A stretch of 64,000 nucleotides of DNA from Tricharina praecox. Taxonomy: Eukaryota. The stretch spans positions 62,001-126,000 of the forward strand of contig NW_026250439.1 of assembly GCF_024521635.1 (NCBI RefSeq), written 5' to 3'. Below the pieces are notes generated by a model. The model saw only the letters and a list, made by a program, of their open reading frames with translations. It was not told the DNA's origin and did not search any database. The position numbers and the translations under genes were made by a program. Shown one piece after another: positions 2,541 through 62,905 of this stretch. The first letter of the stretch is position 1. Each line of letters starts with the position of its first letter.

Positions 2541-3099
2541 TGTCAGGGCTTGCGACGGAAAGACGAAGGAAGAGTCGGCGCAAGGATTATAAAAGTTGGG
2601 AGGGAGTGCACCGGCAGTGCACTGGCAGTGCAAGGATGAGGCGAAGAAGATTGGGGGTTGTGTGCAGGGAGCAGGGATAGCGCAGTAATCAGCCGTAGGG
2701 GATTGAGGCTGTGTGCAGGAAGCAGAGGTAGTACGGCTGCACAGGGTACGAGTCACGGAAGCGGGGTACTGGCATGGTGGATTTCTCAGGGTCTGGCACA
2801 CGCCCACGGTCATTGTCAGATTGCGGGAACAAGTGGAGGATGTTCTATATAAACGGGCGGTTGCCCCTCTGTATTTAGTTCTTCACGCAACAACTTGTTA
2901 ATTCAATCACTGTTACCTGTGTCCTTACTTCGGCTGCCGTCTGCGCCGTAGTCCTTGTCCCTGCCTCTGTTCTCAGTTGCCGTCTGCACTGAGCCCTGCC
3001 TTACCTTGTCCTCTGCATACGTCATGCCTCTGCCGAACCCAGAACCCGATCCCCCGCCCGGCTTCGCTACCTGAAGCCTTGCTCGACCCTGCCGTTACA
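2541..3099 (+). mobile_element. Solo LTR, family A, nested in the 2202-3482 LTR
   Basis: TGTCA...TTACA ends, TATATAAA, 5-bp TSD CTGAG on both sides. Confidence 0.93.
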
Positions 3100-3531
3100 C
3101 TGAGCTATGCTCGGGTAGGAAGTGGTAAGCACTTCTTGCCTAGCCGGAACGGCTATCCCTGCAACAGCTTACGACGATTCTATGGCCTAGACGCAGTGAG
3201 TGACTCTTCATAGCGCTTACGTCAGAGCATGACGTAAAGGAGCATTTGCAACGGAGTTCCCCACAACAGAGTTTGCCGATCACATGCCAGGTGTCTGGGT
3301 AGAATCCATAGTCACTCGGCCATCGTCACGCAGATCCCGAACACCAGCACAACCAGAACACTGAACACTACCAACGATACCCCGCAAGATTATTTCGTTG
3401 TGAATTATTGAAATCCCTGACTTTTATTCTATACTCGATATCTATCAAGACTCGGATGTCCTGAAACCGTTCCAGTCTCACACTATAATCTTAAGAGTCA
3501 TAAGTTACCGATTTCACAACACACAACCACT

Positions 3532-6686: not shown

Positions 6687-7382
6687 TGTAACGGCACGGT
6701 TGGGCAAGGCTCCAGGTAGCGGAGTCGGGCTGGGGACCGGGTTCTGGGTTCGGTAGAGGCAAGACGGGTTCAGGGGACAAGGTGAGGCAGGGCTCAGTGC
6801 AGACGGCAACTGAGAACACAGGCAGGGACAAGGACTACAGCGCAGATGGCAGCCGAGGCAAGGACAGAGGTAACAGTGATTGAATTAACAAGTTGTTGCG
6901 TGAAGAACTAAATACAGAGGGGCAACGGCCCGTTTATATAGAAAATCATCCACTTCTTCCCGCAATCTGACAATGACCGTGGGCGTGTGCCAGACCCTGA
7001 GAAATCCACCTTGCCAGTACCCCAGTTCCGTGACTCATAACCTGCGCAGCCGCACTACCCCTGCTTCCTGCACACAGCCCCAATCTCGTGCGACTCATTA
7101 CTGCGCTATCCCTGCTCCCTGCACACAGCCCCAAATCCTCTGCGGCTCATCATCGCACTGCCGGTGCACTGCCTCTGCACTGCCCCCCAACTCTCCCGAT
7201 CCTTGTGCCGACCCTCCCTTCGTCATTCCATCGCGAGCCGTGACAGTAGTCCCTCCTAAGGCTCGAGTTCCCACGAGAGCAAGTTCGACTGGTCCAGGCT
7301 GCATGGGGTATCGTCGATGGAAGTCGTCCACAGCTTGTACCTCGGTAAGGTTCTCCTCTGGTTCCCATGTTGGTGCCGCGTA
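6687..7382 (-). mobile_element. 3' end of a family-A chromovirus: chromodomain tail, PPT and 3' LTR (6687-7245)
   Basis: Minus strand 7382-7246 encodes YAAPTWEPEENLTEVQAVDDFHRRYP (chromodomain), then the purine tract AGGAGGGA just before TGTCACGG. No matching TSD, as expected for a non-solo LTR. Confidence 0.88.
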
Positions 7383-8121: not shown

Positions 8122-8128
8122 CTCGCGG

Positions 8129-8687
8129 TGTAACGGCACGGTTGGGCAAGGCTCCAGGTAGCGAAGTCGGGCTGGGGATCGGGTTCTGGGTTTGGTAGAG
8201 GCAAGACGGGTTCAGGGGACAAGGTGAGGCAGGGCTCAGTGCAGACGGCAACTGAGAACAGAGGCAGGGACAAGGACTACGGCGCAGACGGCAGCTGAGG
8301 CAAGGACAGAGGTAACAGTGATTGAATTAACAAGTTGTTGCGTGAAGAACTAAATACAGAGGGGCACCGGCCCGTTTATATAGAAAATCCTCCACTTCTT
8401 CCCGCAACCTGACAATGACCGTGGGCGTGTGCCAGACCCTGAGCAATCCACCTTGCCAGTACCCCACTTCCGTGACTCATACCCTGCGCAGCCGCACTAC
8501 CCCTGCTTCCTGCACACAGCCCCAATCTCCTGCGACTCATTACTGCGCTATCCCTGCTCCCTGCACACAGCCCCAAATCCTCTGCGGCTCATCCTTGCAC
8601 TGCCGGTGCACTGCCTCTGCACTGCCCCCCAACTCTCCCGATCCTTGTGCCAACCCTCCCTTCGTCATTCTATCGCGAGCCGTGACA
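8129..8687 (-). mobile_element. Solo LTR, family A
   Basis: TGTAACGG...CCGTGACA ends with TSD CGCGG. Confidence 0.95.
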
Positions 8688-11712: not shown

Positions 11713-12149
11713 AGTTGCATTCAAGAAACAAAGGAGATATCTCAAGTTTATCTCTCTTGCAGTATCCTGCATCCCAAAATGCTTGGCAATCGTTCATGCA
11801 TACTAGTTTCATACAACTGTAGCGTATGAATGCTACTACTACCTAAATTATAGAGCTGAAAAACCCTTTGGATTAACTTCAACGACGGTTGATTGTGGTT
11901 GGTGAGTGGAAAATCAATGAATTGATTACCCATAAAATGAATACCCCATCAACAGTAACTTCAATAGAATGTTGGAGCCTGCAGTTCATTTGCACCATAA
12001 CTCTCCTGTCACAGTTCAGAAATTCTAGCCTTAAGTGGCTACTGGGATGATGGCCTTCAGCCATTAAAATAACTTGTTGGTCGAGTGGTATAGTACTTTC
12101 CCAGTGTAATTTATTACATCCCCTTTGGGTTGCCAAAACTTCAAAAATG

Positions 12150-12221
12150 TGGAGGAGCAGGGAATCGAACCCTGGACCGCCTCTATGCTAAAGAGGAATT
12201 ATACCACTAAACCACACCCCC
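12150..12221 (-). tRNA. tRNA-Ala(AGC)
   Basis: 72 nt; anticodon arm CCTCT-TTAGCAT-AGAGG, GTTCGATTC T-loop, T-run downstream. Confidence 0.95.
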
Positions 12222-13661
12222 AACTATGAGGACTGTGCACCCAGTGCTTCTTGAGTCATTCGAATGTAGTTCTGTTCATCTTCCATGCATTTGGTGTGAT
12301 TTACAATTGGATTTAAAAAGGATCCGTAACAAGGATCTGTATGAAGAATGCACAGCATAGGGTAACCGGCCATTACAAGCATGCCAGACAGTGCTAAAGC
12401 ACTTTCCGACCTCCGCCCAGTGGTAGAAATATCACAATACTTCAAAAACCACAGTATGATAGACATTAAAACTTTGAGCTAGCAAAGAGAATACATTTAA
12501 AAACCTTTGCTTTGAATATAAAAAAAATCCGGCACCCAATAACCCATACTGATCTGGGCTAGACTAACTACCTCAAATCTCACTGCTACCACCCCCACCT
12601 GCTTTCAACTGTGAAGAGTCTTTCTCAAAGTGCTGTCAGGCAGTTGGAAATACGGGTTAGCAGGTGTATCTAGCCAAGGGATTACTTGCAGAGAATCTTC
12701 TGTGGTATCCTCTTCATGGTCTTCCCACTCGCTCAAGTGATTGTCGAGCACAACCACTCAATTTTGACGCGAGGCTGAACTTGCTGCCGGACTGTTAAAA
12801 CAAGTCCCAAGATGTGGTTAGAAGTGTAACAAGGTAAAGAGAAGAGGTACTTTACCTACGGAGTACATATTGCAACCATCTGGTACGTGTCTGGGGTAGT
12901 TTTCCAAAGTGAATCTGCTTGATAGGTTTGACGATGTGACACCCCGATAGGTATCGGAGGTCACGACGGTTGCAAGAGATGTGATTAGATAGTTCGGGTG
13001 ATTAGAATAGAGTTGCGAGCCGAAAGGATAGTTAGAAGCGATCAAGGACAAGATAGGAAGGAGGGAGCAAACGGATTCCAGAGTCTAGACAGTGATCGGA
13101 GATGCGGGTGATCGGGATAACAGTCCAGAGGACTCTGAGATCTCCGTTCATGGGGCCCCGCAGTAGGAACTCCGATCCAGGGAAAAACTGTTATGACGAG
13201 AGAATCGAACATCGACCGATGGGGGCAGACAACTTCGAGCGAAGAACTCTGCCGGCGCATGAGGGAGATAATTGCTCGGAAACTCCGATCCATCTTGGGC
13301 ACGTGGTGTTTACCACCTGCCTAGTCGAGAAGACTATCCGAAGAGAGCTGACGACGACTCAGGCTAGGCCGCGGAACTCCGATGCAAAGGAAGCAACGGA
13401 GCTACGTTAGGCCGCACTCTAGAGAAATCACGTGCTGAGGATCGGAACGACTATAAGTCGAACCGAGCGAGCAACCGAACCAAACAACCATCATCGCATC
13501 GAACAAACCATCGAACAAACACCCTTAAGATTATTCCGTTGTGAATTATCGAAATCCCTGACTTTTATTCTATACTCGATATTACCATAGACTCCGACGA
13601 CACAAACTCGTTCCAGTCTCACACTATAATCTTAAGGTTACAGTCACCGATTTCTATCAAA

Positions 13662-16229
13662 ATGTCCTCCTCAAACCTCGACATGCTCCGCCTCGAACTT
13701 CCTCAGACCCTGAGCAATCCGCTCGTTAGCATCCCGCAAGCATCCGAAACCGTCGAAGTACGAAACCCGGCAGCCTGGCTCAGGCTGAAGAACCACCAAT
13801 ATCAAACGGCACAAAGAGACCTGCGCCAACTTTACCAAGCATGCGATCAGAAGTTCAACGAAGAGGACTCCCGAATGCAGGAAATCAGAAGGAACTACGA
13901 ACAACTCTGCGATGGGGTCAAGTATGTGTACAACATCTACGCTCACAATGCCGAAATGAATACAGAATGGCTTCGAACCGAGCTGTCAACGGTAGCGAAC
14001 GCGACGCACGCCCTGAGCAGCGACGTATGTGTAACGGCACGGTCGGGCAAGGCTCCAGGTAGCGAAGTCGGGCTGGGGATCGGGTTCTGGGTTCGGTAGA
14101 GGCGAGACGGGTTCGGGGAACAAGGTGAGGCAGGGCTCAGTGCAGACGGCAACTGAGAACAGAGGCAGGGACAAGGACTACGGCGCAGACGGCAGCCGAG
14201 GCAAGGACAGAGGTAACAGTGGTTGAATTAACAAGTTGTTGCGTGAAGAACTAAATACAGAGGGGCAACGGCCCGTTTATATAGAAAATCCTCCACTTCT
14301 TCCCGCAACCTGACAATGACCGTGGGCGCGTGCCAGACCCTGAGAAATCCACCTTGCCAGTACCCCACTTCCGTGACTCATACCCTGCGCAGCCGCACTA
14401 CCCCTGCTTCCTGCACACAGCCCCAATCTCCTGCGACTCATTGCTGCGCTATCCCTGCTCCCTGCACACAGCCCCAAATCCTCTGCCACTCATCCTTGCA
14501 CTGCCGGTGCACTGCCTCTGCACTGCCCCCCAACTCTCCCGATCCCTATGCCGACCCTCCCTTTGTCATTTCATCGCGAGCCGTGACAGTATGGGCAGTC
14601 ATTCGAGAACGTAACCAGAAAGACGAAGACAACCGCGAGCTGCAAAGCGTCGCAAACGCTCGGCTACAAGACGCCATCGTGTTCCTCGAAACCGCGCAAG
14701 TCGAACAACGCAGGGAGCAAGCGGTGTACAACCGCAACGTGGAAATTTGGACAGGGAAACAGGAAGAGAAGGCAGAATACCTCTACAAGGAGCAACAGCG
14801 AATTAAGGAAAAAATCGCTCGAGCAGAGAAAAAATTGAAGGCTGTAGAGGTAAGGACAGGAAAGGCGAAGGAAAAGGCCCCAGAGTGGGTAAACACCACA
14901 CCAAGAGGAGGATCGCGGGCAGAAAGGTCAGCAACAAGGGCAACTCCGGCAGGTGCAGGAATGTCCCCTCCTCCTCCACCCCCAAGACGTCCGGTAACTA
15001 ACCTTGGAGGTGATCCCTCGGATGAGGAACCATCGGATGATGACGATTTCATCCCCTTGCCGTGTCGTTCGCCGCCCCGTCACCGACACGCTCCGCTACC
15101 AAGAGAAGACGACGAAGACGAAGAGAGTCGCTTCGCTCGGATCATCGCTGCTGCCGTCTCCGCATCGAACCCGAGGGCCATCAAGCTTAAAATGAAAGAG
15201 CCCAAGCCGTTCGATGGCAAGCAAAGGACAGCCTTCCGTCCATGGTGGGACTCAGTTGAAGAATATCTTGAGTTCCACCCAGAGACAAACGAGCAGCAGA
15301 AGATAGCGTGGGTGGGATCCTGACTGGAAGGAACAGCGGCAGAATGGCATCAGGCCCGTCGAAAAAGCCTGAGGCAGCTACACTTGGAAGATACCTGGCA
15401 GGCGTACCAAGAGGCACTCAAGGAGGCGTACCGCGACACACAGGAAGGAGCGAACGCATTAAGAAGGATGTGGGCCCTCGAATACAAAGGAGACATTCAG
15501 GCTTACATGACCTCCTTCCGATCGCTCAACATGATCGCTCGCGCCACCGGCGAACCACTACAAGACATAGTCAACCAGGCCATGACCACCGACATCGTCG
15601 ACATGTGCTTCAACCAGCACACCGAACCCTACGAAGACGATGAAGACTTCCTGGAAACGGTGCTCAGGGCTGGCAACCATGTGGAACGACGGGACGCGCT
15701 GAAGAAGGCAAGGGCAATGAGGAAAGGGGGATCGGGTAGCCAGGGTTCCGGCGACGACCGGAAGGGACCTGGCAACGGCCGGCAGGGCCAAGGAAAGGGC
15801 AGAGACCCCGGGGGCCGCAAGGAAAGCGGGGAGTCCCCGGAGGGCCGAAAGGCCAAGGAAGCAACAGGAGTCAGGAAGGGAAGGACAAGGGAAGGGGACA
15901 TCTACGTAGGAGCAAAGGAGGCTCTGGTAGGGGTTCCTCAGAAGGAGATCGATGCCCACAAAGCATCCAAATGCGACTGTTGGCGTTGCGGACGAGATGG
16001 CCACCGAACCTTCCAATGCTACGCCAGAAAAACAGTCGCGGGTACCGAACTCCCCGAGAGTCCAAAGGTGTCATCCGTGACAAAGAGAAAGCGTGACACC
16101 CAAGATGCCGAACCCACTCGACCAAGGTCCAAGCAACACAAAGCTGCGGCGGTTGTGGTGGAGGATGAAGCAATGACGGAGGCGCCTCCATTCTGGGAAA
16201 GGAATGAGAGCGAGCCGGAGGATTTTTGA
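13662..16229 (+). pseudogene. gag: Gag with CCHC zinc knuckle, interrupted
   Basis: CWRCGRDGHRTFQC knuckle; solo LTR at 14030-14588 and an in-frame TGA at 15321-15323. Confidence 0.93.
14030..14588 (-). mobile_element. Solo LTR, family A, in gag
   Basis: TSD GTATG; the gag frame is restored when the LTR and one TSD are removed (SSDV|WAVIRE). Confidence 0.96.
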
Positions 16230-19200
16230 GCGGCCCCAGCACTCCGCAGACTGGACGGCAAGGTGTATATATTTGCGGAACGAAGAGACCACGGCCTCAG
16301 GATATCGACAGCGAATCCAGAGATAAGCGAAGACGAACGGATCAACCTATTTCTACGAGTCCAACCGCGCCGAGCGCCTCAGGGTGTGAGCCCCCAAAAC
16401 CTGTCAGCGGACCACGACCAATCATAGAAATGATGCTCCTCTGGTCTGAGCACAAGCGACGACGGATCCGAGTACTCCTCGACACAGGATGTGCCATTCC
16501 GATCATCAAACGAAACCTTGCACGAGAACTTGGGTTGCCCCTCATTCAACGACCTAAGCCGGTGGAAATCAAGGACTTCCACGTAACCATAGTGGAAGGA
16601 GCTGGGGAATATTATACAATGCCGATGCTCCTCCAACACCGGAGACACTACACCAACGAAACCTTCGAAGTGGCTCCCTTGGACGACTGCGATGCCTACC
16701 TCCCGTATTGGTGGATGGCTAAGCATGAACCGACAGGGTTGTGGGAGAATGAAGCACAGAAAATTCGCTTCACCAGCACACGATGCAAGGAACAATGCAC
16801 CTTGCAACAAGCAACCAGCTTTCCGATGGAAGTTGACACGTCTGTCGTTCACAATTCGGAGGCTCGCATTATCGGATACGTCTCAGCTGGCCCGGAATCA
16901 GATCCACCCATCAATCTGCTTCCGGAGAAGTTCAGACGATATGCCAACATCATGAGCAACGAAGCAGCCGATAAGCTTCCCGACCACAAGTCCTACGACC
17001 ACGCAATCGATCTCAAGGAAGGAGAGACTCCTCCATGGGGTCCTATCTATACGCTGTCAGAGAAAGAACTTGAGGCCCTCAGGGAGTGGCTCAAGGAGAT
17101 GCTCCAGACAGGCAAGATTCGAAGATCCAAATCACCAGCCGGGGCGCCGATATTATTTGTACCAAAGGTGCACGGCAGGGGTCTCCGATTGTGTGTCGAC
17201 TATCGCGGTATCAACAAGATTACCGTAGCCAATCGCTACCCACTCCCGATCATGGTAGAGTTGCAAGACCGAGTCAGGGGTGCGAAAGTCTTCACCAAGA
17301 TTGATCTGAAGAATGGCTATCACCTTATCCGCATCAAGGAAGGTGACGAGTGGAAGACGGCTTTCCGCTGTCGATACGGACTATTTGAGTTTTTGGTCAT
17401 GCCGTTTGGGCTGACCAACGCTCCAGCGACGTTTCAGGACATGATTAACCACATATTTCGGGATATGTTGGACCTGGGACTGGTCGCGTACATCGATGAC
17501 CTCCTCATCTATGCTAAGACGCACGAGGAGCATGACAAGATAGTCATCGAAGTACTAAAGAGGTTGGAAGAAAATAAGTTGGCAATCTCACCAGAGAAGT
17601 GTGTCTGGTCGACAGGGAGAGTCGAGTTCCTAGGATACGTGATATCCCAAGATGATATTGAGATGGCTAAGGACAAGGTGGAATCTGTGCTCTCGTGGGA
17701 GGCGCCGCGGTCCCTGAAGGAAGTACAAGCCTTTCTTGGGTTCGCCAATTTTTACAGGCGCTTCATCAAGGATTTCTCAAAGATCACGAGACCCTTGACC
17801 GAGAGCACAAAAGAAAAAGGGAAAGATTGGTGTGAGACTGGAACGATTTCGGTCGTCGGAGTCGATTGATAGAATAGGATAAGAATGAAGATAGATAGTA
17901 TTCTTTCTTTCACAAGCGGAATAATCTTAAGGGGTAGTGTCGATGGTTTTCTGGTTGCTGATTCCGATGATGAATCTTTCACCGTGTCGTCGGAAGTCTA
18001 TATAGTTGGGTGATTTGATCGAGTCACGTGCCAGCTGTTGCCGTAGCTTGTTGCCGGATGGAACCCTGGCGTGAAATCTCTGCACTTGGTGCGGAGACTT
18101 TCTCCACCATGTCATCAGAGTCGTCGTAAGCCTTCAGGATAGTTTATACAAACTAGGCAGGTATGGCGCACCAATCCTTACCCGAGCATAGTCCGGTTTC
18201 AGCTATCTCCTCGCTGGGCAACGGCTGCGCCTTTCGGCACGGCTCTTATTTGCTTAAGACGCGAGAAGAGGGGCAACACTCGTCATAGTGGTTTTTCTCC
18301 GATCAGAGTTTTCTCTGCGCTTGTTCCGCGATTCGCCTGCCTCAAGTCAAGGATGACTGTATCGGACTTTTCGTGCGTATCGCTGCGCCTCCGATCCCAC
18401 CTAGACTCTGGTTCCGTTTGCTTCCTTCCTTACTATCTCGTCTCTGACTAGCTACGACTAATCTAAAAGGTTCCCTCTTGTTCCCCGATCTATCTAACTA
18501 TTTTCCTGAACTCCCGTTGGTAAGCAGCCGGACTCTGAAGTCGGGCCGACTGCGACCAGGGTGTCACAATTGGAGATGGACAGGGGAGATGGAACTGGCC
18601 TTCGAGGAGCTGAAGTCTAGGTTCACCACAGCACCGATTCTCGGGCACTTCAACCCAGAATTACCTGTCGTGGTGGAATCCGACGCTTCGGACTTCGCCT
18701 TGGGCGCGGTCCTGTCTCAAAGGGCAGAGGATGGGAAGTTACACCCAGTTGCGTTCCACTCAAGAAAGTTTACCCCAGCCGAAATCAACTTTGAGATTCA
18801 CGATAAGGAACTACTCGCGATAGTAGACTCTTTCAAACGCTGGCGGCAATACCTCGAGGGAGCAAAACACCAGATCCAGGTGTACAGCGACCACCAGAAC
18901 CTTGAGTACTTCACAACCACGAAAGTACTCAATCGACGGCAGGCGAGATGGGCACAAGAACTCGCTGGCATCGAATTCAAAATCTACTACCGGCCCGGCA
19001 GCCAGAACGGCAAGCCTGACGCATTATCCAGGCGCCCGGAGTACCGCCCTGAAAAAGGGGGGGTGAAGATCAGCCGATTACGACGATCCTGCATAAATCA
19101 CACTTTGCAGGCGATGATTCGAGAGTTTCATCAATCAGCACCGGAGGCGAAAGCACCGTGTTCCTGGTTTCGACAACTCGGCTACAATCAATCCCCGTGC

Positions 19201-20777
19201 CAAAGTGGAATGAAGAATTTCTGGGTTGGGTCAGGAAGGCAGGAAAGGAAGATGCTGGGTATCAGGAAGCTCTGAGTAGCATCAAGGACACGAACGAGGA
19301 CGCGGCTCAGAAGGACACTGAGTCGGAGGGCCGAAAGGCCTGGGAACTGGCCGCCGAGAGTAGGGACTCCGGCAGGATGGGTCGAAAGGCCAGGATTTTG
19401 AGGATGGAAGAGGGGTGCCTGTATAGGAAAGAAAGGCTATGGGTACCAGACGACAAGGAACTCGTCAGACACATCCTCAAGTCGAAACACGATACGAAAG
19501 TCGCGGGGCATATGGGCCAGGACAAGACTATCGAACTTATCCGACGCAATTTCTGGTGGCCGAAGATGGACGAGCAGATTATAGACTTCGTCCGGAGTTG
19601 CGCGCAGTGTCAGAAGGACAAAGCAACAAGGCACCAGCCGTATGGACTACTCAATCCCCTCTTGTTACCATACACCCCATGGCAATCAATAGCCATGGAC
19701 TTCATCACCGACCTACCGGAATCCAACGGATGCGACCAGCTATGGGTGGTCGTCGACCGCTTCACCAAGATGGCGCATTTCATCCCCCTACCTAAGGATG
19801 GAAAGATAGCCGAGGATCTCGCGAAGATTTTTGCCCGCGAGATATGGCGCTTTCACGGATTACCAGCAGACATAGTGCCGGACGGAGACTCACGGTTTAC
19901 CTCGGGTACATGGAAAGAATTCATCCGGCTGCTAGGCATTAAGCCCCGGATGTCAACAGCGTTCCACCCACAGACGGATGGACAAACCGAACGCCTCAAC
20001 CAGACGATCGAAGCATACCTCCGCTCCTTCGTCAACTACGAGCAGAACGATTGGGTGAATCTCCTACCGATGGCTGAGTTTGCCTACAACAACTCGGTTA
20101 CATCGGCAACTGGCATGTCGCCCTTCTACGCGAATTTCGGATACCACCCGTCGGCGACAAACCCTGCTGCGGCAAATTCTCTCAACCCCGCCAGCAAGGT
20201 CTACGCTCACTGGATGCATACAGTCCACGAGGAAAACATCAAGACCCTCGAACGAACGCGCGAACGAATGCGCAAGTATGCAGATCAACATCGTCAGGAG
20301 GCACCGGCTTATCAAGTAGGAGACTTGGTAATGCTCAATGGGCGGAACATTCAAACCCGCCGACCCTCGCGGAAGTTGGACCACAAGAACCATGGTCCCT
20401 TCCAAATCGAGAAGATCGTATCGCCGCTCGCTGTCAAGCTCACTCTGCCAAGGAAGTGGAAGATTCATAATGTCTTTCACGTCTCGCTCTTTGAACCATT
20501 CCGAGCCGGCACCCGAGCACCACCGGATCCCTCTCAAATCTTACGAGAGGCCGATGATGTGGAAGGCAACGAAGAATACGATGTCGATGAGGTTATGGGC
20601 AGCTCGAAGAAAGGTCGACGAGTGCTCTACCTCGTGAAATGGCTCAACTATCCCGAACGACGGGACTGGACGAACGAGCCATTCGACAACTTCTCAGTAG
20701 GCGGTCGGGAAAAGCTACGCAAGTTTCATCGCAAAAATCCCGATGCGCCGAGGGACTACCGGCTCACAGATGAGTAA
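16226..20777 (+). pseudogene. pol: Pol (protease, RT, RNase H, integrase, chromodomain), interrupted
   Basis: LLDTGC, YIDD, ESDAS, zinc-binding region H...H...CAQC, MDFITDLP/GQTER, GPF module, YLVKWLNY chromodomain. Solo LTR at 17831-18568 and a one-base frameshift in the G-run near 19057-19063. Confidence 0.96.
17831..18568 (-). mobile_element. Solo LTR, family B, in pol
   Basis: TSD ATTGG; removal restores [15 protein letters not shown]. Confidence 0.96.
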
Positions 20778-21613
20778 GAGTTTTTTCCCATGTGGTTTTC
20801 TCGAACTCGGGCAGGTAGTAGGATGAAGGGGTTGGAGGACTTCATCCACAGTTATCAAGTTAGGATAAAGGCGAGGACTTGGGTGCTTCGGGCCGAAGCC
20901 TCGTGGGAGGGGAGATGGTGTGACACCCCGATAGGTATCGAAGGTCACGACGGTTGCAAGAGATGTGATTAGATAGTTCGGGTGATTAGAATAGAGTTGC
21001 GAGCCAAAAGGATAGTTAGAAGCGATCAAGGACAAGATAGGAAGGAGGGAGCAAACGGATTCCAGAGTCTAGACAGTGATCGGAGATGCGGGTGATCGGG
21101 ATAACAGTCCAGAGGACTCTGAGATCTCCGTTCATAGGGCCCCGCAGTAGGAACTCCGATCCAGGGAAAAACTGTTATGACGAGAGAATCGAACATCGAC
21201 CGATGGGGGCAGACAACTTCGAGCGAAGAACTCTGCCGGCGCATGAGGGAGATAATTGCTCGGAAACTCCGATCCATCTTGGGCGAGTGGTGTTTACCAC
21301 CTCCCTAGTCGAGAAGACTATCCGAAGAGAGCTGACGACGACTCAAGGCTAGGCCGCGGAACTCTAATGCAAAGGAAGCAACGGAGCTACGTTAGGCCGC
21401 ACTCTAGAGAAATCACGTGCTGAGGATCGGAACGACTATAAGTCCAACCGAGCAAGCAACCGAACCAAACAACCATCATCGCATCGAACAAACCATCGAA
21501 CAAACACCCTTAAGATTATTCCGTTGTGAATTATCGAAATCCCTGACTTGTATTCTATACTCGATATTACCATAGACTCCGACGACACAAACTCGTTCCA
21601 GTCTCACAGACGA

Positions 21614-21865: not shown

Positions 21866-22704
21866 TGTCACGGCTCACAACGGAACGTTCGAGGAAGAGT
21901 CGGAACAGGGGTTGGAAGGCAGCGCAGGGCCTGCGCAGGCGGCTGCGCAGGCGGCAATGCAGGAATGAGTCGGAGGAATTGGGGCTGTGTGTTGGAGACA
22001 GGGGTAGCGCGGCAGCGCAGGCTGTGAGTCACTGGAGCGGGGGTAGCGGCGAGGAGGATTTCTCAGGGTCTGGCACACGCCCACGGTCATTGTCAGGTTG
22101 CGGGAAGAAGTGGAGGATTTCCTATATAAACGGGCCGGCGCCCCTCTGTAATTAGTTCTTCACGCAACAACTTGTTAATTCAACCACTGTTACCTCTGTC
22201 CTTGCCTCGGCTGCCGTCTGCGCCATAGTCCTTGTCCCTGCCTCTGTTCTCAGTTGCCGTCTGCACTGAGCCCTGCCTCACCTTGTCCCCTGAACCCGTC
22301 TTGCCTCTGCCGAACCTAGAACCCGATTCCGAGCCCGACTTCGCTACCTGGAGCCTTGCCCGACCGTGCCGTTACAGTGGATTTCTCAGGGTCTGGCACA
22401 CGCTCACAGTCATTGTTAGGTTGCGGGAAGAAGTGGAGGATTTTCTATATAAACGGGCCGTCACCCCTGTGTACTTAGTTCTTCACGCAACAACTTATGA
22501 ATCCAACAACTGTCACCTCTGTCCTTGCTTCGGCTGCCGTCTGCACCGTAGTTCCTGTTCCCGCCCATGCCCCTGAGTTGCTGTCTGCACTGAGTCCTGT
22601 CTTGCCTCGTCTTTCCGTCTTGCCTCGCCCTTGCCCAACCCAGTTCCTGTCCATCTGTCCACCTGTCTTCTCTACCTGGAGCCCAGCCCAACCGTGCCAT
22701 TACA
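21866..22704 (+). repeat. Family-A LTR (21866-22376) followed by a partial second A LTR
   Basis: TGTCACGG...CCGTTACA, then an R/U5 copy ending ATTACA at 22704. No matching TSD. Confidence 0.88.
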
Positions 22705-23119
22705 CCTGGAGAAGATCCAATTTGGGACTGACTCCCCAATCGTCTAGCTGCATACACTAGTCCGGAAGAGCTTTTTCCATAGCAAAGCTAAGCACCGCTC
22801 TTTCGGCCAGAGCATTGTGGATATCCACCTATGCCGAAGTGTCTTTTGTTCTCCTTCTTCTGTTTAACTTGTTTGGAAAGTTTATCAAGTGCTATGATGT
22901 GGTAGTATGATGTGGTAGTATGAGTGTCAAGGAACTTTTACTGGTTTACTGGAATAGGCAGGGTCAAGTACGGGCTTAGTTGAAGCTAAACAGTGTCCGG
23001 GTTCTTTATAATGGCAGGTTACCCTATGCTATATAGTTCCCTTCAAGAATAGTAGGCAAATAGAGCTAGACGCAAATAAATTGCTTAATAAAAGCTAAGT
23101 TGTTCCTGCTCTCACAGTT

Positions 23120-23191
23120 GGGGGTGTGGTTTAGTGGTATAATTCCTCTTTAGCATAGAGGCGGTCCAGGGTTCGATTCCCTGCTCCTCCA
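23120..23191 (+). tRNA. tRNA-Ala(AGC)
   Basis: Identical to the reverse complement of 12150-12221. Confidence 0.95.
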
Positions 23192-23834
23192 GTATTTTGG
23201 AGTTTTGGCATCCCAATCGGAAGTTATTGCGCACATTCGTTTAGTTTTGCTACATAGGGGTCTTTTCGGTTGGCTTTCGCTTTTGCTTCTCTCATGCATG
23301 CGTCATCCATGTGCATACATAACCCTGCGTTAGAAGGGAGGCCGTGATGCGGGCCTTGGCCCGCACTCAAGCGCTGCAACAAGCATATCATAGCTGAGCT
23401 TGGTTGTTGAATCCTTGGTGGATCTGCAGGTGAAACTTCAGCCCCAGCCACAGCGATCGTGGCTGGTAATGTGGTTCGAGTGTTGTCTCGTGGAGCGGGC
23501 GTACCTCCGCTATCACTACCGCTAACCATATACGGTCAAGCTTGTCACCCATTGTGTTCTCGAATACTGCGATGAATTCATAATGCTCGGAGCGCCGCCG
23601 AACCCAGCGGGCCTCGTACGTAGTTGACAACGCACTGACGGGTTATAGGAATATATAGTCGTTCCGAAATCTACAAGTGATAAGTCTCGCCCGTGGAGCC
23701 ACTTTTCGACAGACAGCTTTCAGGACCGAAACCACCTGCCAATACCTAGTATCGTACATACCTACTCGTCGGTCCGCCATTGCTCCTCCTCCAGCCAACC
23801 GATCAACCAAATCATCACCACGCCGGAAGATACC

Positions 23835-24340
23835 ATGTCAGAACACCGGTCCAGCACGCCAGGTAGGTGGCTCACAGTCCCCACCGCCTCCGCCGTCCTA
23901 CATACCTACATAGGCACGCAATACTAACAAACCTAGCCTCCCCTACCGACCTGGTGCAGATTTTCCTGTCGGCGTGCACGTTGCTGGTCGCGATCGTGGG
24001 TGTGACACTGGAGTATGCGCGGCGGCGTCGCCGCCGCCGCCAATTGCTCGCTCATAATCCCACCACCAACAGCAATCTGGAGAGCTCGGTAGCGGTGGTA
24101 GAGGCACTCGCGGAATACGGAGATGTCACTGGCGGTGGCACTTCGACGTCTGCAGCCGCGGGCGAGGGCGAGGGCGAGGTCGCCCGGTACATCCATAGAG
24201 TACTGGCGCTCTGCGTGCTTCTTTGGCGACTTGCCCTGGCGCTGGCGATGCGGATCGCGACTGGGTGCGGATTGGGCGTTGATGGCTGGGGTGGTAGACG
24301 GGCGGTATGCATACTTTCGTGGTTTGGCTACGGCACATAG
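23835..24340 (+). CDS. Small single-TM protein family, member 1 (143 aa; exons 23835-23862, 23937-24340)
   Basis: Intron GTAGGT...TACTAAC...TAG. Protein MSEHRSSTPASPTDLVQIFLSACTLLVAIVGVTLEYARRRRRRR... Paralogues at 27113 and 56651. Confidence 0.75.
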
Positions 24341-27112
24341 GTGCATTGGGGTACATTGGTTGGGCTAGGTTATCGGTTATTGGTTATTGGTTGCGGAGTT
24401 GGATTTGGGGTTGGAGTTAGATTTCTCATTCGATCTCTTCGGTTTTTGTTTTGTTTTATTTTCTGTTTTGTTTCGACTAAGGCTTAAGCTTGCCGAGCAC
24501 CGACGGCTGCGGGCATGAGCGAGCTTCGCCTTGCAGACCGATCGAATGGTTTTGGCTTGAATATGTACGGTTTCGGTGTTGAGTTTCTATATCCTTCGTC
24601 TTTTGGTTCTTTGGTTTTTGTTCTGTCGGTTTACATATGGATGGTTGGAATACAGGCGCGACTGGCTAGTCGGTTCAAGGCCCCGGCGTTAGACCAGTAG
24701 TACTCATACTCATCCTGAATCCCAAGCTCCCCCCACATATCATTTATTTCCGGGAGAACTCCCAGGAACTTTTTGACCGCTTCATATCTCGTGGCGTAGG
24801 TGGCAGGCGGTGGGACGGGGGGTGCCGTACCAGCTGTGCCTGAGGGGAGGGCGATCCGGTCGAGCTGCTAAAGTCACGTAGCTACATCCAAGCCCCTTGC
24901 GAAGCTCAAGCTTGAATGTAACGGAAATGGCAGTCAATGCTCAAATATTTCCGGTCGCAAAAAAATGCTAAGCGGTGTAATGTACGAGTGCGATTTCATG
25001 AGCATCACTTACCAGGCGAAAGCCGCGAATGCCGAAAAGAAATAAAGCTACCTGACCTGTCTTTACCATTAGCCCGCAGGTCAGCATAGAATGAAAGTTT
25101 CTGATAGATTCCATCGTGTCTAAAAAATTGCTAGAGAGCGACGAGCCGAGTGATATTCCATACTGGTGTGCTACCGAGTGCTGTTTGATGTGGGAGCCGA
25201 TGCCGTAAGCGTAGGAGTTAACTTGGTGTTACTAATTTTGAGGCGACACGTTCCCCGCTTTTATCGATGTTCATCACGTGAAAAGCTTGGGAGTCGAGTT
25301 GGATACAGTTGTCCCTCCAGACTGCTTAGAAGATGAGCAACCTAGAGCCGTAGAGAAATATGTACATTCTACTAACCGGACCCGCCTGCAGCCGGAATAA
25401 GTGATGCGTCAAGGTTAGTGAGGTCGAAGAACGTAGGATGAAAATCAGATCGGTATGCGAAATTCACTACCTACAATCAACCGAATAATTGTCGATTGAA
25501 GACCACGTAACCATAAGATATCTTCATAATAGTACCCGTATGGCTCTACCTTCTAGCTTGTTTCACGATGGTAACGCACCCAAGTTTTCCACGTGCATAA
25601 AAGGAAGCCGCTGCATGCTGCATGAAATATCAATCAACCTCGAACGGTGTGGAGTTCGCTTTTTCTTCGCCAGGTAGGTCGCGGCCTGATCGGATTTATA
25701 CAGGCGGGGGGCCGAACCCTCAACCTCTCCGGTTTCCAGCACTTCGGGTCCCCACTCCCGGGCCCCGGCCGATGAAGGCCTCGAAAGAAACACCGTAACA
25801 ACCGGGACCAAGCGCCTAGGAAGGCAATTAATCCAATTTCGATATAGAGTACTCCGGCGATTGAGGACACGGCATCCTGGCATTCGCTTACGGAATCTGC
25901 TCAGACATCTACTCCATGGCGGCGACAATAAATTCTATGGCTGAGCCACATGCAGCCACGAATCTAATCTCAGATAACAACCTGCAGGGGGGGAATAGGG
26001 TGGGACAAACTTTCGGGCGGGGTGAGTATTGTTTTTTAGCCGAAGAGAAACGTTCTCAGTTCAGTACGGGGTTTTTTTTTTCATGTTGGAAGGATATTGA
26101 AGTCTTTTTGTACTGGTTGTTCGAAGTTTATCCAGCGGTGGTAGCGGTGGTGGTGGTATGGGTGGTGATGGTGGTGATGGTGATACCGCGCGAACCAAAA
26201 AGCTGGGTTGATGGTGGAGATGGCACTGTTTTACCGGATGGGACTTGGTTTCCGTGATATGTAAACCCTAACCAAGCTCCACCTCGTAAAACTCCTCTCC
26301 TCGCTCTCACCTACCGTCCTCTCGCAATTTTCGCTCTCTTTCGCTCTCCCTTTTTCTCTCTGTTTTTGTCTCGGTGGGCGCTCTGTTGCGGTGTACTGGG
26401 GCGACTAGGGGTGTGCAGTTACAAAGTGCTGTGTTGCAAAAACGCTGTGTTGAACATGTTTGGCTATTTGTCCACTTTCGACCGCCGTAATTTGCTTACT
26501 TTCGCCCGCCGTACGTATCGACTGTGCCGCCAGCTCCGGCCTTCGTCGTTCGTCGTTCCTCGTATTGGTCTCACGAGTTCTTTTGTTCACCGGTACTCGA
26601 CGTTGGCGTAGGTACCTATAGCCGGGATCCATCGGCTAGGTAGCTCACGTAGGGATACCTACCTACTCCCACATATCTTGCGAGTCACGACGCACTCGGT
26701 AGTGCTGATCGGCAGACATCTCCATCTTTCCATTCCTTTGGGGGTTGCCTCCTACAAGCGCCAACGGGGAACCGTGCCGTGGATGTAGCAAGCGACAGTT
26801 GGTCGGACCTTAGCATGGATCATCGCATCCGTGGTCTCACAGTGACGCGCCCCGGACCCCAGTCGCAGTACGGAGGAATGGAATCATTCCTTCGCCATGA
26901 TTTCATTCTATCTAATACCTTTAGGCATGTAAACATGGTATATGTTCACTCCGACTTCCCATCACTCCGACTACATTTTCAGGGACGGCTTATCGACACC
27001 ACCTAGGGTCTTACCGCGACCAACTCGACCAGTTCTACATACGCACAGTTGTACGTCTCCCGATTTCGACTTTCTCCCAGCAGTACTTCAACATCCGTAT
27101 CCCCCCGTGGAA

Positions 27113-27613
27113 ATGATCGAACTCTGCACGAGCAGCCCCAGTAAGTTCCACTGTTTCCGCACCATTATCTCCCCCCTCCCGAGCAGTCCGAGGACGTCAA
27201 CTCACAGATCACTGGCAGTTCCCGCAGGCGATTTGATACAGATAGCTCTCGGGGCGTGCATGCTCCTAATCATGATAATCGGGCTAGCACTCAAGCATGC
27301 ACGGACTTCGGAGGGGGCCTATACTGCGCGGCCCAGGGCGAACGCAAGTTCTCCGATGCATAGCATCGGTCGACACCGCCAAGCTCTACGGATCGATACG
27401 GAAACCGCGGCGGATTCGGAATTCGAGGAAACCGGGGGCAACACGATAGCTCCAGCCACAGTGGCACTGGTTTCAGAGATCGGACGGGCGACGGCGAGTC
27501 CGTATCTCTGGCGGTGGCAGCCGGTGCCTTCCGTCTTTGGAAGGGGTCGACAAAGTCTCTACGAGTGGATCAACATGCAGATTGTCACGGGATATCAATC
27601 GTGGAGGAAGTAA
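27113..27613 (+). CDS. Small single-TM protein family, member 2 (~140 aa; exons 27113-27140, 27219-27613)
   Basis: Intron GTAAGT...CTCAC...CAG in the same phase and position as member 1. Protein MIELCTSSPIPAGDLIQIALGACMLLIMIIGLALKHAR... Confidence 0.7.
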   Translation: MIELCTSSPSKFHCFRTIISPLPSSPRTSTHRSLAVPAGDLIQIALGACMLLIMIIGLALKHARTSEGAYTARPRANASSPMHSIGRHRQALRIDTETAADSEFEETGGNTIAPATVALVSEIGRATASPYLWRWQPVPSVFGRGRQSLYEWINMQIVTGYQSWRK

Positions 27614-28144
27614 ACGGGCACTTACGTGGCGTCGGTGGTGGTTTCTTTGGGCATATATATACCTGAAATTATTTTTGGCTCGTTGGTTTGGTTGTACATA
27701 GACGGAATAGACTGCATATCGCTTCGACTGGTACGCTCTCGAGTATTTCGCTCCGTCAATGTTCACGGGAGGAATATCGATCGGATATGCAACTCACGCT
27801 AAGTCGGCAGATTAAGTCAGCAGAGGTTGGAGCACATTCCCTCTTGATATCTGCCCAACATCAGAGCCTACACACTGAGAGGCCATGAAGGAAGCCGTGG
27901 GGAGGAACAGCGGGAGTTGATCCGGACTTCTCGACCACAGCACCCTCCTCCTCCTCCTCTCGCCTCAGCTCTACCTCCCTTTCTTCCCGCTTCCCTTTCT
28001 TCCTCCCACTCGGATCATCGCCGTATCCTCCCCCCACCCCCCCGCCTTAACATCATCCCTCAAAACTCTCACCCGACACGAGGAAGCACCAAAAGAACAA
28101 AAGACCAAAAGCACCAAAAGAACAGAACAGCAAAAAGAACACCT

Positions 28145-28231
28145 CTCTCTGTCAGGGAATTGAACCCTGGTCTCCCGCGGACTATCACTTGGAATGACAG
28201 GCGGAAATACTAACCACTATACTAACAGAGA
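28145..28231 (-). tRNA. tRNA-Asp(GTC) with a 15-nt intron
   Basis: TCTCTGT acceptor stem, TCCGC-CTGTCA[TTCCAAGTGATAGTC]C-GCGGG anticodon arm, GTTCAATTC T-loop. Confidence 0.93.
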
Positions 28232-29441
28232 TTGATGTGAGGCGTAGGTGGTAGCACATATAGCCAGGAGTTGATGATGGCGGTGCTCACAACATGGTGG
28301 GTCCTATAGTGGTGGGTGGGGAGTGCCGTCTTCGCTCAGCGCTGAAGCTACCCGATTAGGAGATAATTGATTGGTCGACATGCAGGTATGTATGTAGGGT
28401 GGCGCTGCATGCCATCTCCCCCCCTCGCTGACAACGAGTTTGAATACATACGGAAACTGTTTCTGTCATACTTCTGATACATATGCCGGCAATTACTGCG
28501 CAGTCCAGTGGCTACAATCTGTCGCATATGTAAACACTGACCAGTGAAGCCCGAAGCGGCCCGTTATAGACAGATCATTTACTCGGCTAGTTAGAACGTG
28601 ACATCGCACCCAATGGAAACTTGAAAGCTCGCCCCGTGAGTGATCCCCTCCGACTCCCCTCACACGAAGGATTAGATCCTCACTGGTCAAGTTTGTCTCC
28701 GCGCAACATGCGTACCAGTACTCTATGGTGAATTACCGTGGTGGGTGGGATTACGTTGTGCGAGCTTAGTCATCATTTCCTCAACCACAGCCACAGCCAC
28801 AGCCACACCATTGCCCCATCGGTATCGGCATCAGCATCAGTGCTCGATGTACGAGTAGGTATTAGAAAAGAAGTATCAATTCTCCCCTCCCCTCCTCAAT
28901 TCTCCCCTCCCTCCCCTCGTCCCCTCCCTCCTCCCCAGCAGTAGAAAGAAAGCAACAAAACACCCCGCCCCGCCAGTGCAGACACCCCAGTACCCCAGCA
29001 AGCAGCAAGCATAAACAAAACATCAGTCACCCCCGCTCACAATCCAACGGACAATCCCCAAAAATGTAATCGTATCGTATCGTACCAGAAAAAAGACCAA
29101 GTCAAGACAAGACAAGACAATCCACAAACCACAAAAGCCAAGAGACAAAGCGAAAGAGAAGAGACAAGACGAGAACATTACCACCCCCCCACCTTCGTTC
29201 GTTCGGTTCGTTCAGTCGGTCATAACGAATGCAAGAAAAGGAAAGCACAAGAACAAGACAAGAAAAGAGAAGGAAGAAAAAAAGAAAAAGGTCCCCATCC
29301 CGCAAGTAGTCGGAAAGTCGTCCCTCGGTCTCGGTCGGTCAACAAAACATTGGTATATTCACACACCCACCCACAGGGACCCACCCACCCACCACCCACA
29401 CAGCACACACACACAGAGAGAGACAGAGAAAGAGGCTAAGC

Positions 29442-56650: not shown

Positions 56651-57151
56651 ATGTCCGTTCCGAATATTACAAGTATGCATACGAGCCACCCACTGCAACC
56701 GTTTCTTCGATCCATCCAGCGAACTTAGCCTCTAATGTAATATAGTTCCCGTCGGCGATGTGGTGCAGATAGTCCTTTCGGCCTGCACGCTGGCCGTGAT
56801 GATCCTCAACCTGGCATATAAGATTCTCTCGCAGTCGGCGCGGGCAAAGGTACGTACTCGGAGGTCGGATAGTAGGCCCCATGTTTCTCGCAGCAGCTAA
56901 CACAACCCCAGCCCACCGCCGACTTCGACGTCGAGAACGCCGTCGCGGGAAGCGCCGACGCCACCGACCGGAAATTCCCGTCCATCGGACGGCAGCTGAC
57001 GCGTTACCTCCGCACGTACTCCGAGCTGCTGCTCGATTTCCACCGGCACACCGTGGTCGACGGCGCTTACCGGCTGCGCCGCAGCCTATCGGACGTGCTG
57101 CTTACTGGCGGTAAGGAGGCGGCTGCAGCTCCTCCTTGCCGCGCCGCTTAG
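56651..57151 (+). CDS. Small single-TM protein family, member 3 (121 aa; exons 56651-56672, 56746-56849, 56912-57151)
   Basis: Introns GTATGC...TCTAAT...TAG and GTACGT...GCTAAC...CAG give an open frame MSVPNITIPVGDVVQIVLSACTLAVMILNLAYKILSQSARAKPTADFDVENAVAG... Confidence 0.8.
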
Positions 57152-57193
57152 ATCCGCCGACGTCGCTTCACTGTCGCTATGCGAAATCAGCTG

Positions 57194-57268
57194 TTACGAA
57201 TTATACGAATTTACGAATTATACGAATTTACGAATTATACGAATTTACGAATTATACGAATTTACGAA
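57194..57268. repeat. 17-bp minisatellite (TTACGAATTATACGAAT) x4.4
   Basis: Perfect tandem units with no spacers. Confidence 0.95.
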
Positions 57269-61883: not shown

Positions 61884-62905
61884 CTACCTCGTCTTCGTCT
61901 TCTCCCTCTTGGCCGAGCAATTCGGACAGAACCACTTTCCTTTGGGCTCCTCGGTGAGGTGCACGCAGCCCCAATGGAACCATTCGTAGGGACACTCCTT
62001 GTCGTCGCATCCTACCATGCTGCCGTAGCTGACCTGCTGGCAGAGACAGTACAGCTTTTTGTCCTCGCCCTCACCGCCGTCCTCATCCTCGTCGTCATCG
62101 TCGTCATCGCCATCCTCATCGATAACCTTCTTCACCGGCGGTTTCTTCCGCCCCGTCTTTCTCGTCCCACTGTGGCCAGACGGGGTACCAGCGCGACTGC
62201 TCTCGTTCTTAATCCCGGGAGTCGCCGGTCGCCCCGCCAACGCCGACAGTGACGGTGTGCCTTGATGTCCCAACTTCAGCCTCTTATTCCCACCCGCCTG
62301 CAGTCCCGGCGTAGCCGGCGTGCCGCCCCTATCCTGCGCGAACGACCTCGACATTCCGAGCCCGGGACTCGCCCTCCCTATCCCTCCCGCGCCCCGCCCA
62401 CCCACATGCTGACTCGCGGCGGGGAGATTACTTGGCGGCGGGGCGGGGGTCAATGCATCGGCTGGCATGGAACCATCGCGCACGAGATTCGCGATCCCTC
62501 CGTCGAGCCTGCGCTTATGCTTATCGATGAGGTCGAGCGCCTTCTGGGCGAGGTGGATCTTCTCCTCCTGGAGCTCGAGGACGCGGCGGTGCGCTTTCCG
62601 GATCGCCTCGACGTACTGCGCTTCCTTGGTATTCTCCGAGTGCGAGCCGTGCAGCCGGATGTGCTTTTGTAGCGACGCGTCGCGCGATAGGTAGCTCACG
62701 CGCTGCTCGTTCAGCAGCCGGTCGCGCGCGATGATCTCCTCGTAGATGTGGATTACTTCGGCGGGGAAGTTGGAGGCTGTGGCAGTTTGCGCAGAGGTTT
62801 ATTAGCATCGCCGTTTGCAGGGTGAGCACGTGCACGCGAGGGTGAAGAACCATCGCTGACGAAGTTTTCGAGGACTGTAGCGGCGTCCTCTTGCGGTGCG
62901 GACAT
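61884..62905 (-). CDS. YNG2: ING-family PHD-finger protein (NuA4 subunit Yng2-like), ~315 aa; exons 62905-62851, 62776-61884
   Basis: [22 protein letters not shown]-terminus, LQEEKIHLA, and the PHD finger [16 protein letters not shown]...EWFHWGCV...KWFCPNC. Confidence 0.88.

Follow-up and report, generated by a model that had tools for sequence, protein, structure and literature searches.

Three short genes on the plus strand of one stretch of the Tricharina praecox genome (Pezizomycetes, Pyronemataceae) raise the question of whether they form a family of their own and what kind of protein such a family would encode. The stretch, hereafter the window, is 64,000 nucleotides (nt) long and spans positions 62,001 to 126,000 of contig NW_026250439.1 (assembly GCF_024521635.1); all positions below are counted from its first letter. 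An initial annotation, made from the letters alone, had proposed an unrecognised family of small single-pass membrane protein genes, with two members 3.3 kb apart (genes 1 and 2) and a third (gene 3) further along the window. Reading of the DNA and a script check found all three genes with a common 5′ module, and their coordinates are given in Table 1.

A common 5′ module in three genes

The motif common to genes 1–3 consists of 28 hydrophobic residues and always follows a first coding exon of 22–28 nt and an intron of 73–78 nt. The first introns (74, 78 and 73 nt in genes 1, 2 and 3, respectively) are all in phase 1, and each splits a codon four residues ahead of an invariant aspartate. Across the three genes, 8 of 34 aligned columns are invariant, namely D4, Q7, I8, L10, A12, C13, L15 and I19. 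The strict regular expression of the motif had exactly three matches when all six frames were read across the window, and the motif profile scored 74.9–78.7 bits on 3 of 1939 six-frame segments, with the next best segment reaching 5.1 bits. Pairwise BLASTP E-values for the three gene pairs were 7e-8, 4e-6 and 3e-9. Hydrophobic segments can resemble each other by composition, so one partner of each pair was shuffled 2000 times with its composition preserved; none of the 2000 shuffles per pair matched the observed Smith-Waterman score (z of 15.3, 9.7 and 14.1), and the in-register identity was 14, 12 and 14 of 28 residues, against a shuffled mean of 2.3–2.6 and a shuffled maximum of 7–9.

The similarity at the DNA level is limited to the motif, and exon 1, the introns, the untranslated regions (UTRs) and the upstream and flanking DNA gave no meaningful alignment. 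The tails of the three products likewise exhibited no similarity to each other (z of 0.18, 1.08 and -0.34, with 196, 75 and 316 of 500 shuffles matching the observed score). Judged by their sequences, genes 1–3 are paralogues that are homologous in the 5′ module, because the sequence similarity is significant and the intron phase and position are common to all three. The conserved module is composed of 11–13 residues, acidic or neutral for the most part, that close with P-x-(G/T)-D, a predicted 20-residue hydrophobic helix with an invariant glutamine one turn in and an invariant Ala-Cys pair at mid-helix, and a basic cluster.

Most of what the initial annotation had said about the architecture of the family was recovered. 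Both of the motifs that it quoted are exact, its invariant residues D, QI, L, AC, L and I correspond to the eight invariant columns, its third member at 56651 was found there by regular expression and by profile, the phase-1 intron lies directly before the motif at the same codon in all three genes according to the script check, and the tails, which it called highly divergent, are unrelated by the shuffle test. The 28-nt first coding exon applies to genes 1 and 2 (in gene 2 with one of two possible starts), whereas that of gene 3 has 22 nt, and the term microproteins does not suit the products, which at 121–143 amino acids (aa) are small proteins rather than microproteins.

Transcription, coding constraint and gene models

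Transcription was assessed with X1, a public run that bears the label 'RNA? (a guess)' and whose contigs were placed on 22000–29000, a stretch that holds genes 1 and 2. X1 carries about a third of the sampled words from 23600–27700, and its contigs cover 23658–24548 and 26713–27701, with zero cover across 24574–26445 and a depth of 2–9 over the genes studied. The contig over gene 1 joins 23860 to 23935 with 74 nt skipped (GT..AG with the cut at +2), and a 911-nt contig (26713–27701) joins 27140 to 27219 in gene 2 with 78 nt skipped (GT..AG), each joint being the predicted intron. X1 is very likely cDNA, because the joints are canonical and the cover is limited to the genes. Genes 1 and 2 are transcribed and spliced as predicted, and the two junctions for which the initial annotation had proposed confirmation by RNA are both present in the contigs, which carry no information on strand, transcript ends or level. 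The contigs of three soil metatranscriptomes (X2–X4) matched tRNA genes only within the stretch examined.

Over the 28 motif codons, the synonymous divergence (dS) was 1.23, 0.81 and 0.86 for the three pairs, and the ratio of nonsynonymous to synonymous divergence (dN/dS) was 0.35, 0.75 and 0.59. Six of the eight invariant residues are encoded by differing codons among the copies, and second codon positions are 64–82% identical, compared with 39–61% for first and third positions. The dS of 0.8–1.2 makes the copies old, and the codon changes at six of eight invariant residues, together with the second positions being the most conserved, show that the amino-acid motif has persisted. Purifying selection on the motif is modest. 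Coding constraint, which the initial annotation had named as a check on the family, is thus present in the motif as a dN/dS below 1 with synonymous change, at a modest level only, and the tails of genes 1 and 2 look weakly coding.

Codon use was scored as a log-likelihood ratio (LLR) trained on five conserved genes of the window (a kinesin, an ING protein, a Zn-cluster factor and two SNF2-helicase open reading frames, ORFs); these training genes scored +0.30 to +0.57 per codon, with a GC content at third codon positions (GC3) of 0.72–0.80. In each motif region the annotated frame outscored the five others, at +0.25, +0.18 and +0.63 per codon, and the tail of gene 3 resembled the conserved genes (+0.34 per codon, GC3 0.80). 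An antisense frame of 143 codons (minus strand, 23933–24364) was also observed, open through all of exon 2 of gene 1; over the tail, the two strands have equal codon scores. Despite this open antisense frame, the spliced transcript of gene 1 is placed on the plus strand by its GT..AG joint.

All three genes are already in the public annotation as hypothetical proteins with the same junctions, on one 245-kb contig. The product of gene 2 is 100% identical to an NCBI record for a hypothetical protein of Tricharina praecox, which has 197 aa in the public model, and in gene 3 the reading frame ends after 17 further codons if intron 2 is not removed. Among the matches listed for literature on Tricharina praecox, no title or abstract dealt with these genes, no motif-based literature search being made, and literature on single-pass proteins, microproteins, fungi and orphan genes returned general reviews only.

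In gene 1, the RNA-covered 5′ part (23658–23834) contains no ATG, which makes the AUG at 23835 the first one; it has A at -3. In gene 2 the frame is open upstream to 26933, the intron can be read in frame, and the public start is the ATG at 26942, which has T at -3; the extension from 26942 to 27112 (171 nt) scores -0.13 per codon with a GC3 of 0.47 and is non-coding-like, and seven ATGs lie ahead of 27113 in the RNA-covered leader (26713–27112). By analogy with genes 1 and 3, a start at 27113 is the better guess, and the public start of the 197-aa record is probably too far upstream.

Table 1. Coordinates of the three genes and of other features in the window.
Feature	Positions	Strand	Description
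Gene 1, whole	23835-24340	+	143 aa; spliced translation equals public record P0009
Gene 1, exon 1	23835-23862	+	28 nt, 9 codons + 1 base
Gene 1, intron	23863-23936	+	74 nt, phase 1, GTAGGT..TACTAAC..TAG; joint in X1 contig
Gene 1, exon 2 + stop	23937-24340	+	motif 23939-24022, then a seven-Arg run; second hydrophobic stretch near the C-terminus
Gene 2, whole	27113-27613	+	140 aa; equals the C-terminal 140 residues of public record P0007, which is matched whole from the start at 26942
Gene 2, exon 1	27113-27140	+	28 nt, as in the initial annotation; public model starts at 26942
Gene 2, intron	27141-27218	+	78 nt, phase 1, GTAAGT..CAG, in frame, stop-free; joint in X1 contig
Gene 2, exon 2 + stop	27219-27613	+	motif 27221-27304
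Gene 3, whole	56651-57151	+	121 aa; spliced translation equals public record P0008
Gene 3, exon 1	56651-56672	+	22 nt
Gene 3, intron 1	56673-56745	+	73 nt, phase 1, GTATGC..TAG; from the public gene model only
Gene 3, exon 2	56746-56849	+	motif 56748-56831
Gene 3, intron 2	56850-56911	+	62 nt, phase 0, GTACGT..CAG; from the public gene model only
Gene 3, exon 3 + stop	56912-57151	+	tail with gene-like codon use
tRNA-Ala(AGC)	23119-23192	+	upstream of gene 1
tRNA-Leu(CAA), apparently intron-bearing	28103-28231	-	beyond gene 2; with tRNA-Ala, the only matches of soil metatranscriptomes X2-X4
Ty3/gypsy long terminal repeat (LTR) retrotransposon	12935-21608		690-bp LTRs 12935-13623 and 20919-21608, 98.3% identical; open gag, reverse transcriptase, RNase H, integrase and chromodomain ORFs

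The predicted membrane anchor and the search for relatives

The Kyte-Doolittle means over 19 residues reach 2.31, 2.57 and 2.23 in genes 1, 2 and 3 at residues 13–34, with a hydrophobic core of 20 residues, and gene 1 exhibits a second hydrophobic stretch at residues 98–116. The N-terminal flank holds 1, 0 and 0 lysine or arginine residues and 2, 2 and 1 acidic residues in genes 1, 2 and 3, respectively, whereas 7, 4 and 3 lysine or arginine residues occur in the 15 residues after the helix. Each product thus displays the sequence features of a type III signal anchor, namely a single N-terminal hydrophobic segment of about 20 residues without a cleavable signal peptide and with a positive C-terminal flank. 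Under the positive-inside rule, the more positively charged flank stays on the cytosolic side, and because of the acidic N-flank, the 20-residue core and the basic C-flank, the module fits a reverse (type III) signal anchor with a predicted N-out/C-in insertion. The single pass in this orientation and the basic residues following the helix, both proposed in the initial annotation, agree with the hydropathy and the flank charges. Generic type III membrane proteins share the lack of a cleavable signal peptide, the short acidic N-terminus, the long core and the positive C-flank; type III is a topological class and not a homologous family, and it says nothing on function.

On a helical wheel of 100 degrees, D4, L15, I8, I19 and A12 fall within an 80-degree arc. 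The polar face of D, Q and C that had been proposed to mediate a specific intramembrane interaction is therefore recovered in part, with the aspartate inside this arc and Q7 60 degrees off, while C13 lies elsewhere. The pattern is compatible with one packing face, such a face being more than three sequences can establish, and the aspartate that opens the helix may do no more than cap it and set its orientation. Specific intramembrane interaction remains a guess, and nothing was found in support of signalling, allorecognition or fusion, the roles at which the initial annotation had guessed. The AlphaFold2 model of gene 3, made with no alignment, had a mean pLDDT (predicted local distance difference test) of 54.5 and a pTM (predicted template modelling score) of 0.30, with helices at 10–39, 49–63 and 67–113 predicted at low confidence. 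A complex prediction for two copies of residues 1–48 of gene 1, run without controls, gave a score of 0.04 and a mark of 0.32, which weighs neither for nor against a pairing.

Searches for relatives returned the three genes themselves. Pfam hmmscan at E<=10 gave 0 families for seven queries (four exon products and three full-length records), and the profile of A2 against 177,635 distinct PDB sequences reached a best E of 0.96, with unrelated engineered RamR variants; the family thus matches no described family, in agreement with the initial annotation. The motif profile searched against 1,835,955,588 representative proteins gave four matches at E<=0.001, three of which are genes 1–3, and the word-indexed searches, for which gene 2, the three-protein alignment (best 8000 candidates scored) and the tail of gene 3 served as queries, found only these proteins. 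Two candidates were rejected. The fourth profile match, P0010, is a repeat protein in which only profile positions 19–29 were aligned, and the sole locus from 30 pattern matches in the JGI metagenomes (L001) is a chance match, a stop-broken frame under a longer ORF in another frame. The detection power is marginal: a profile of two members scores the left-out third at 35.4–43.7 bits, or an E of 5e-4 to 1e-6 at that database size, and therefore an equally diverged member is just detectable and a more diverged one is not. The initial annotation had suggested a hidden Markov model search for further homologues and had counted their lack among the outcomes that would refute it; as far as was searched, none was found beyond the three genes.

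In the ESM Atlas, the best feature score was 0.80 for P0008, and 0.87, 0.86 and 0.84 for residues 1–48 of P0009 (unnamed Ascomycota clusters), all under the bar of 0.9; the structural neighbours of the queries are merely long helices. Both P0008 and P0009 reach two unnamed Ascomycota clusters, of 56 aa with 254 members and of 131 aa with 63 members, at scores of 0.79–0.86 under the same bar, and these shared clusters might point towards a broader group of small fungal membrane proteins. The family is taxon-restricted, seen so far only in Tricharina praecox, and its whole membership may amount to three genes of a single species. As a family it is new, but it is ordinary in kind, such orphan families being common in fungal genomes.

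The single-span regulators of membrane pumps include the animal FXYD proteins, the yeast PMP1/PMP2 proteolipids, sarcolipin and phospholamban. The proteins of genes 1–3 resemble them in small size, predicted N-out/C-in single pass, small or polar conserved helix residues, a basic juxtamembrane stretch and variable tails, and they resemble FXYD further in a short conserved motif that ends in aspartate just before the helix. By analogy, docking of the helix on a polytopic partner would be a possible mechanism. Pfam models exist for PMP1/PMP2 and FXYD, as they do for the HeLo, HeLo-like and fungal STAND N-terminal domains considered below. For none of genes 1–3 was a sequence relationship to the pump regulators found (Pfam gave nothing at E<=10), and they are not members; the Tricharina praecox proteins are also three times longer than PMP1, and their sequences, as read, lack the FXYD signature.

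In kind, the best-documented analogue is the emerging or orphan transmembrane proteins of the yeast endoplasmic reticulum (ER), such as YBR196C-A, which a review (PMC12684174) presents as orphan or de novo in origin. These proteins are, like those of genes 1–3, taxon-restricted and small, with one predicted transmembrane helix, no homologues and at best a modest known function. The Tricharina praecox genes differ from YBR196C-A in having three diverged paralogues, a conserved intron and a motif kept through synonymous change; three diverged paralogues and such a kept motif therefore indicate age and some selection. They also differ in that their region is not T-rich where looked at, with a GC content of 0.52–0.53.

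Competing readings, genomic setting and significance

The reading favoured here, with a probability put slightly above even, is that genes 1–3 encode real signal-anchored membrane proteins with a functional conserved helix. Translation, membrane insertion, topology, docking and any function are the parts of it that we infer. On this reading the module would insert co-translationally into the ER membrane, so that the short N-terminus would face the lumen or the exterior and the variable tail the cytosol. The stripe of D, I, A, L and I plus Q has stayed the same as the rest of the helix and the whole tail diverged, which suggests that the helix may serve both as the targeting signal and as a helix-helix docking surface for a membrane partner, and the unrelated tails would carry whatever differs between the members. 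The narrower proposal that the helix is a dedicated docking module for one conserved polytopic protein of the membrane, for instance a transporter or a pump, with the three tails tuning this partner differently, is improbable. No partner-like neighbour gene was seen in the context scan of the window.

Several observations weigh against the favoured reading. Only three sequences stand behind the invariant positions, C13 and L10 point away from the conserved stripe, and the dN/dS of 0.59–0.75 in two of the three pairs represents weak constraint, estimated noisily from 23 synonymous sites. The tail of gene 1 scores +0.10 per codon, equal to one antisense frame, and that of gene 2 scores -0.01, compared with 0.30–0.57 in the conserved genes. 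The RNA status of X1 is a guess, though the spliced joints and the gene-limited cover argue for RNA, and the sole X1 contig over 24214, with a depth of 3.3, shows A in place of C there, making codon 102 of gene 1 TGA rather than TGC. The change may stem from an error or from variation between strains, or the truncation may be genuine; a TGA at this codon would remove the second hydrophobic stretch of gene 1 (residues 98–116). In addition, no relative was found in any other genome by the protein database searches and the JGI metagenome scan, and the genes adjoin a transposon nest, a kind of neighbourhood often populated by short-lived genes.

A rival reading takes the genes to be young and barely functional, with the 5′ module copied locally in a transposon-rich region and reading into unrelated, essentially random sequence. 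Transcripts would then exist, while the proteins would be weakly made or absent and without a specific partner, and the helix would persist only through the tolerance or mild usefulness of hydrophobic N-termini, as in the emerging ER-membrane proteins of yeast. The unrelated tails, the weak coding signal in the tails of genes 1 and 2, the stop at codon 102 in the RNA contig, the low contig depth of 2–9, the lack of relatives in the searches made, the transposon nest at 1–22.7 kb and the yeast precedent of YBR196C-A (PMC12684174) all point in this direction. This explanation is nevertheless rated as rather unlikely, since the copies are old (dS 0.8–1.2) yet share eight invariant residues, six of them kept through synonymous changes; the motif has retained its similarity where flanks, introns and UTRs have no meaningful alignment; the tail of gene 3 has the codon use of conserved genes; and all three ORFs are still open over 121–143 codons.

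The remaining alternatives keep the hydrophobic segment and change its destination or its origin. An anchor for the mitochondrial outer membrane or the peroxisome, in the manner of Tom20- and Tom70-type proteins, would account for the short N-terminus, the single N-terminal helix and the strong basic cluster directly after it (seven arginines in gene 1). High helix hydrophobicity favours the ER over mitochondria, and with Kyte-Doolittle values of 2.2–2.6 and no Pfam match to any known outer-membrane family this destination has a low probability. An N-terminal hydrophobic segment, small size and taxon restriction are typical of fungal small secreted proteins, and all three are observed here; a cleaved signal peptide is nonetheless very unlikely, as the region before the core is net acidic and not basic, the core has 20 residues and not 7–15, a charge of +3 to +7 follows the core directly with no small-residue cleavage site (judged by eye), the tails contain 0–3 cysteines in no pattern, and the part discarded would be the most conserved one. 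The HeLo, HeLo-like and fungal STAND N-terminal domains start with a short hydrophobic helix and come from fungal families that evolve fast, so that the motif could be pictured as the membrane-inserting N-terminal helix of a degenerate cell-death domain. Beyond this resemblance, Pfam found 0 families at E<=10 for the full-length proteins and exon products, the products are too short for domains of about 150–200 aa, and no NLR (nucleotide-binding leucine-rich repeat) or prion-forming partner gene occurs among the neighbours scanned, which leaves this origin a probability close to nil.

Genes 1 and 2 lie directly downstream of the transposon nest (about 1–22.7 kb), and no convincing ORF was seen in the region between them. 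The Ty3/gypsy element of the nest (Table 1) is flanked by an inverted 106-bp duplication (12125–12230 and 23216–23111; 94%), in which two tRNA-Ala(AGC) genes lie. Repeats of one family, about 420–560 bp long, were observed in at least six copies with 80–97% identity, such as those at 21959–22706, 2541–3100, 6687–7245, 8128–8687 and 14029–14588; two copies stand in tandem (21959–22376 and 22377–22706), and a TATATAAA box is found in every copy. The X1 bins at 22000–22467 display a summed contig depth of 16,000–52,000, compared with 2–9 for the genes studied. Such a depth may reflect a transcript borne by the repeat and expressed at a very high level, or the adding up of many copies in the genome. 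Just downstream of the stop of gene 3, a minisatellite (57190–57270) is built of alternating ACGAATTAT and ACGAATTT units.

If the three genes are functional, they would offer a clean natural example of a constant membrane-anchoring helix with the rest of the protein replaced, and a constant helix with a replaced tail bears on the origin and retention of new membrane proteins. The invariant aspartate, glutamine and cysteine are obvious mutational handles. Should docking on a membrane partner prove true, genes 1–3 would represent single-span regulators that arose as a family within the lineage of this pyrophilous cup fungus.

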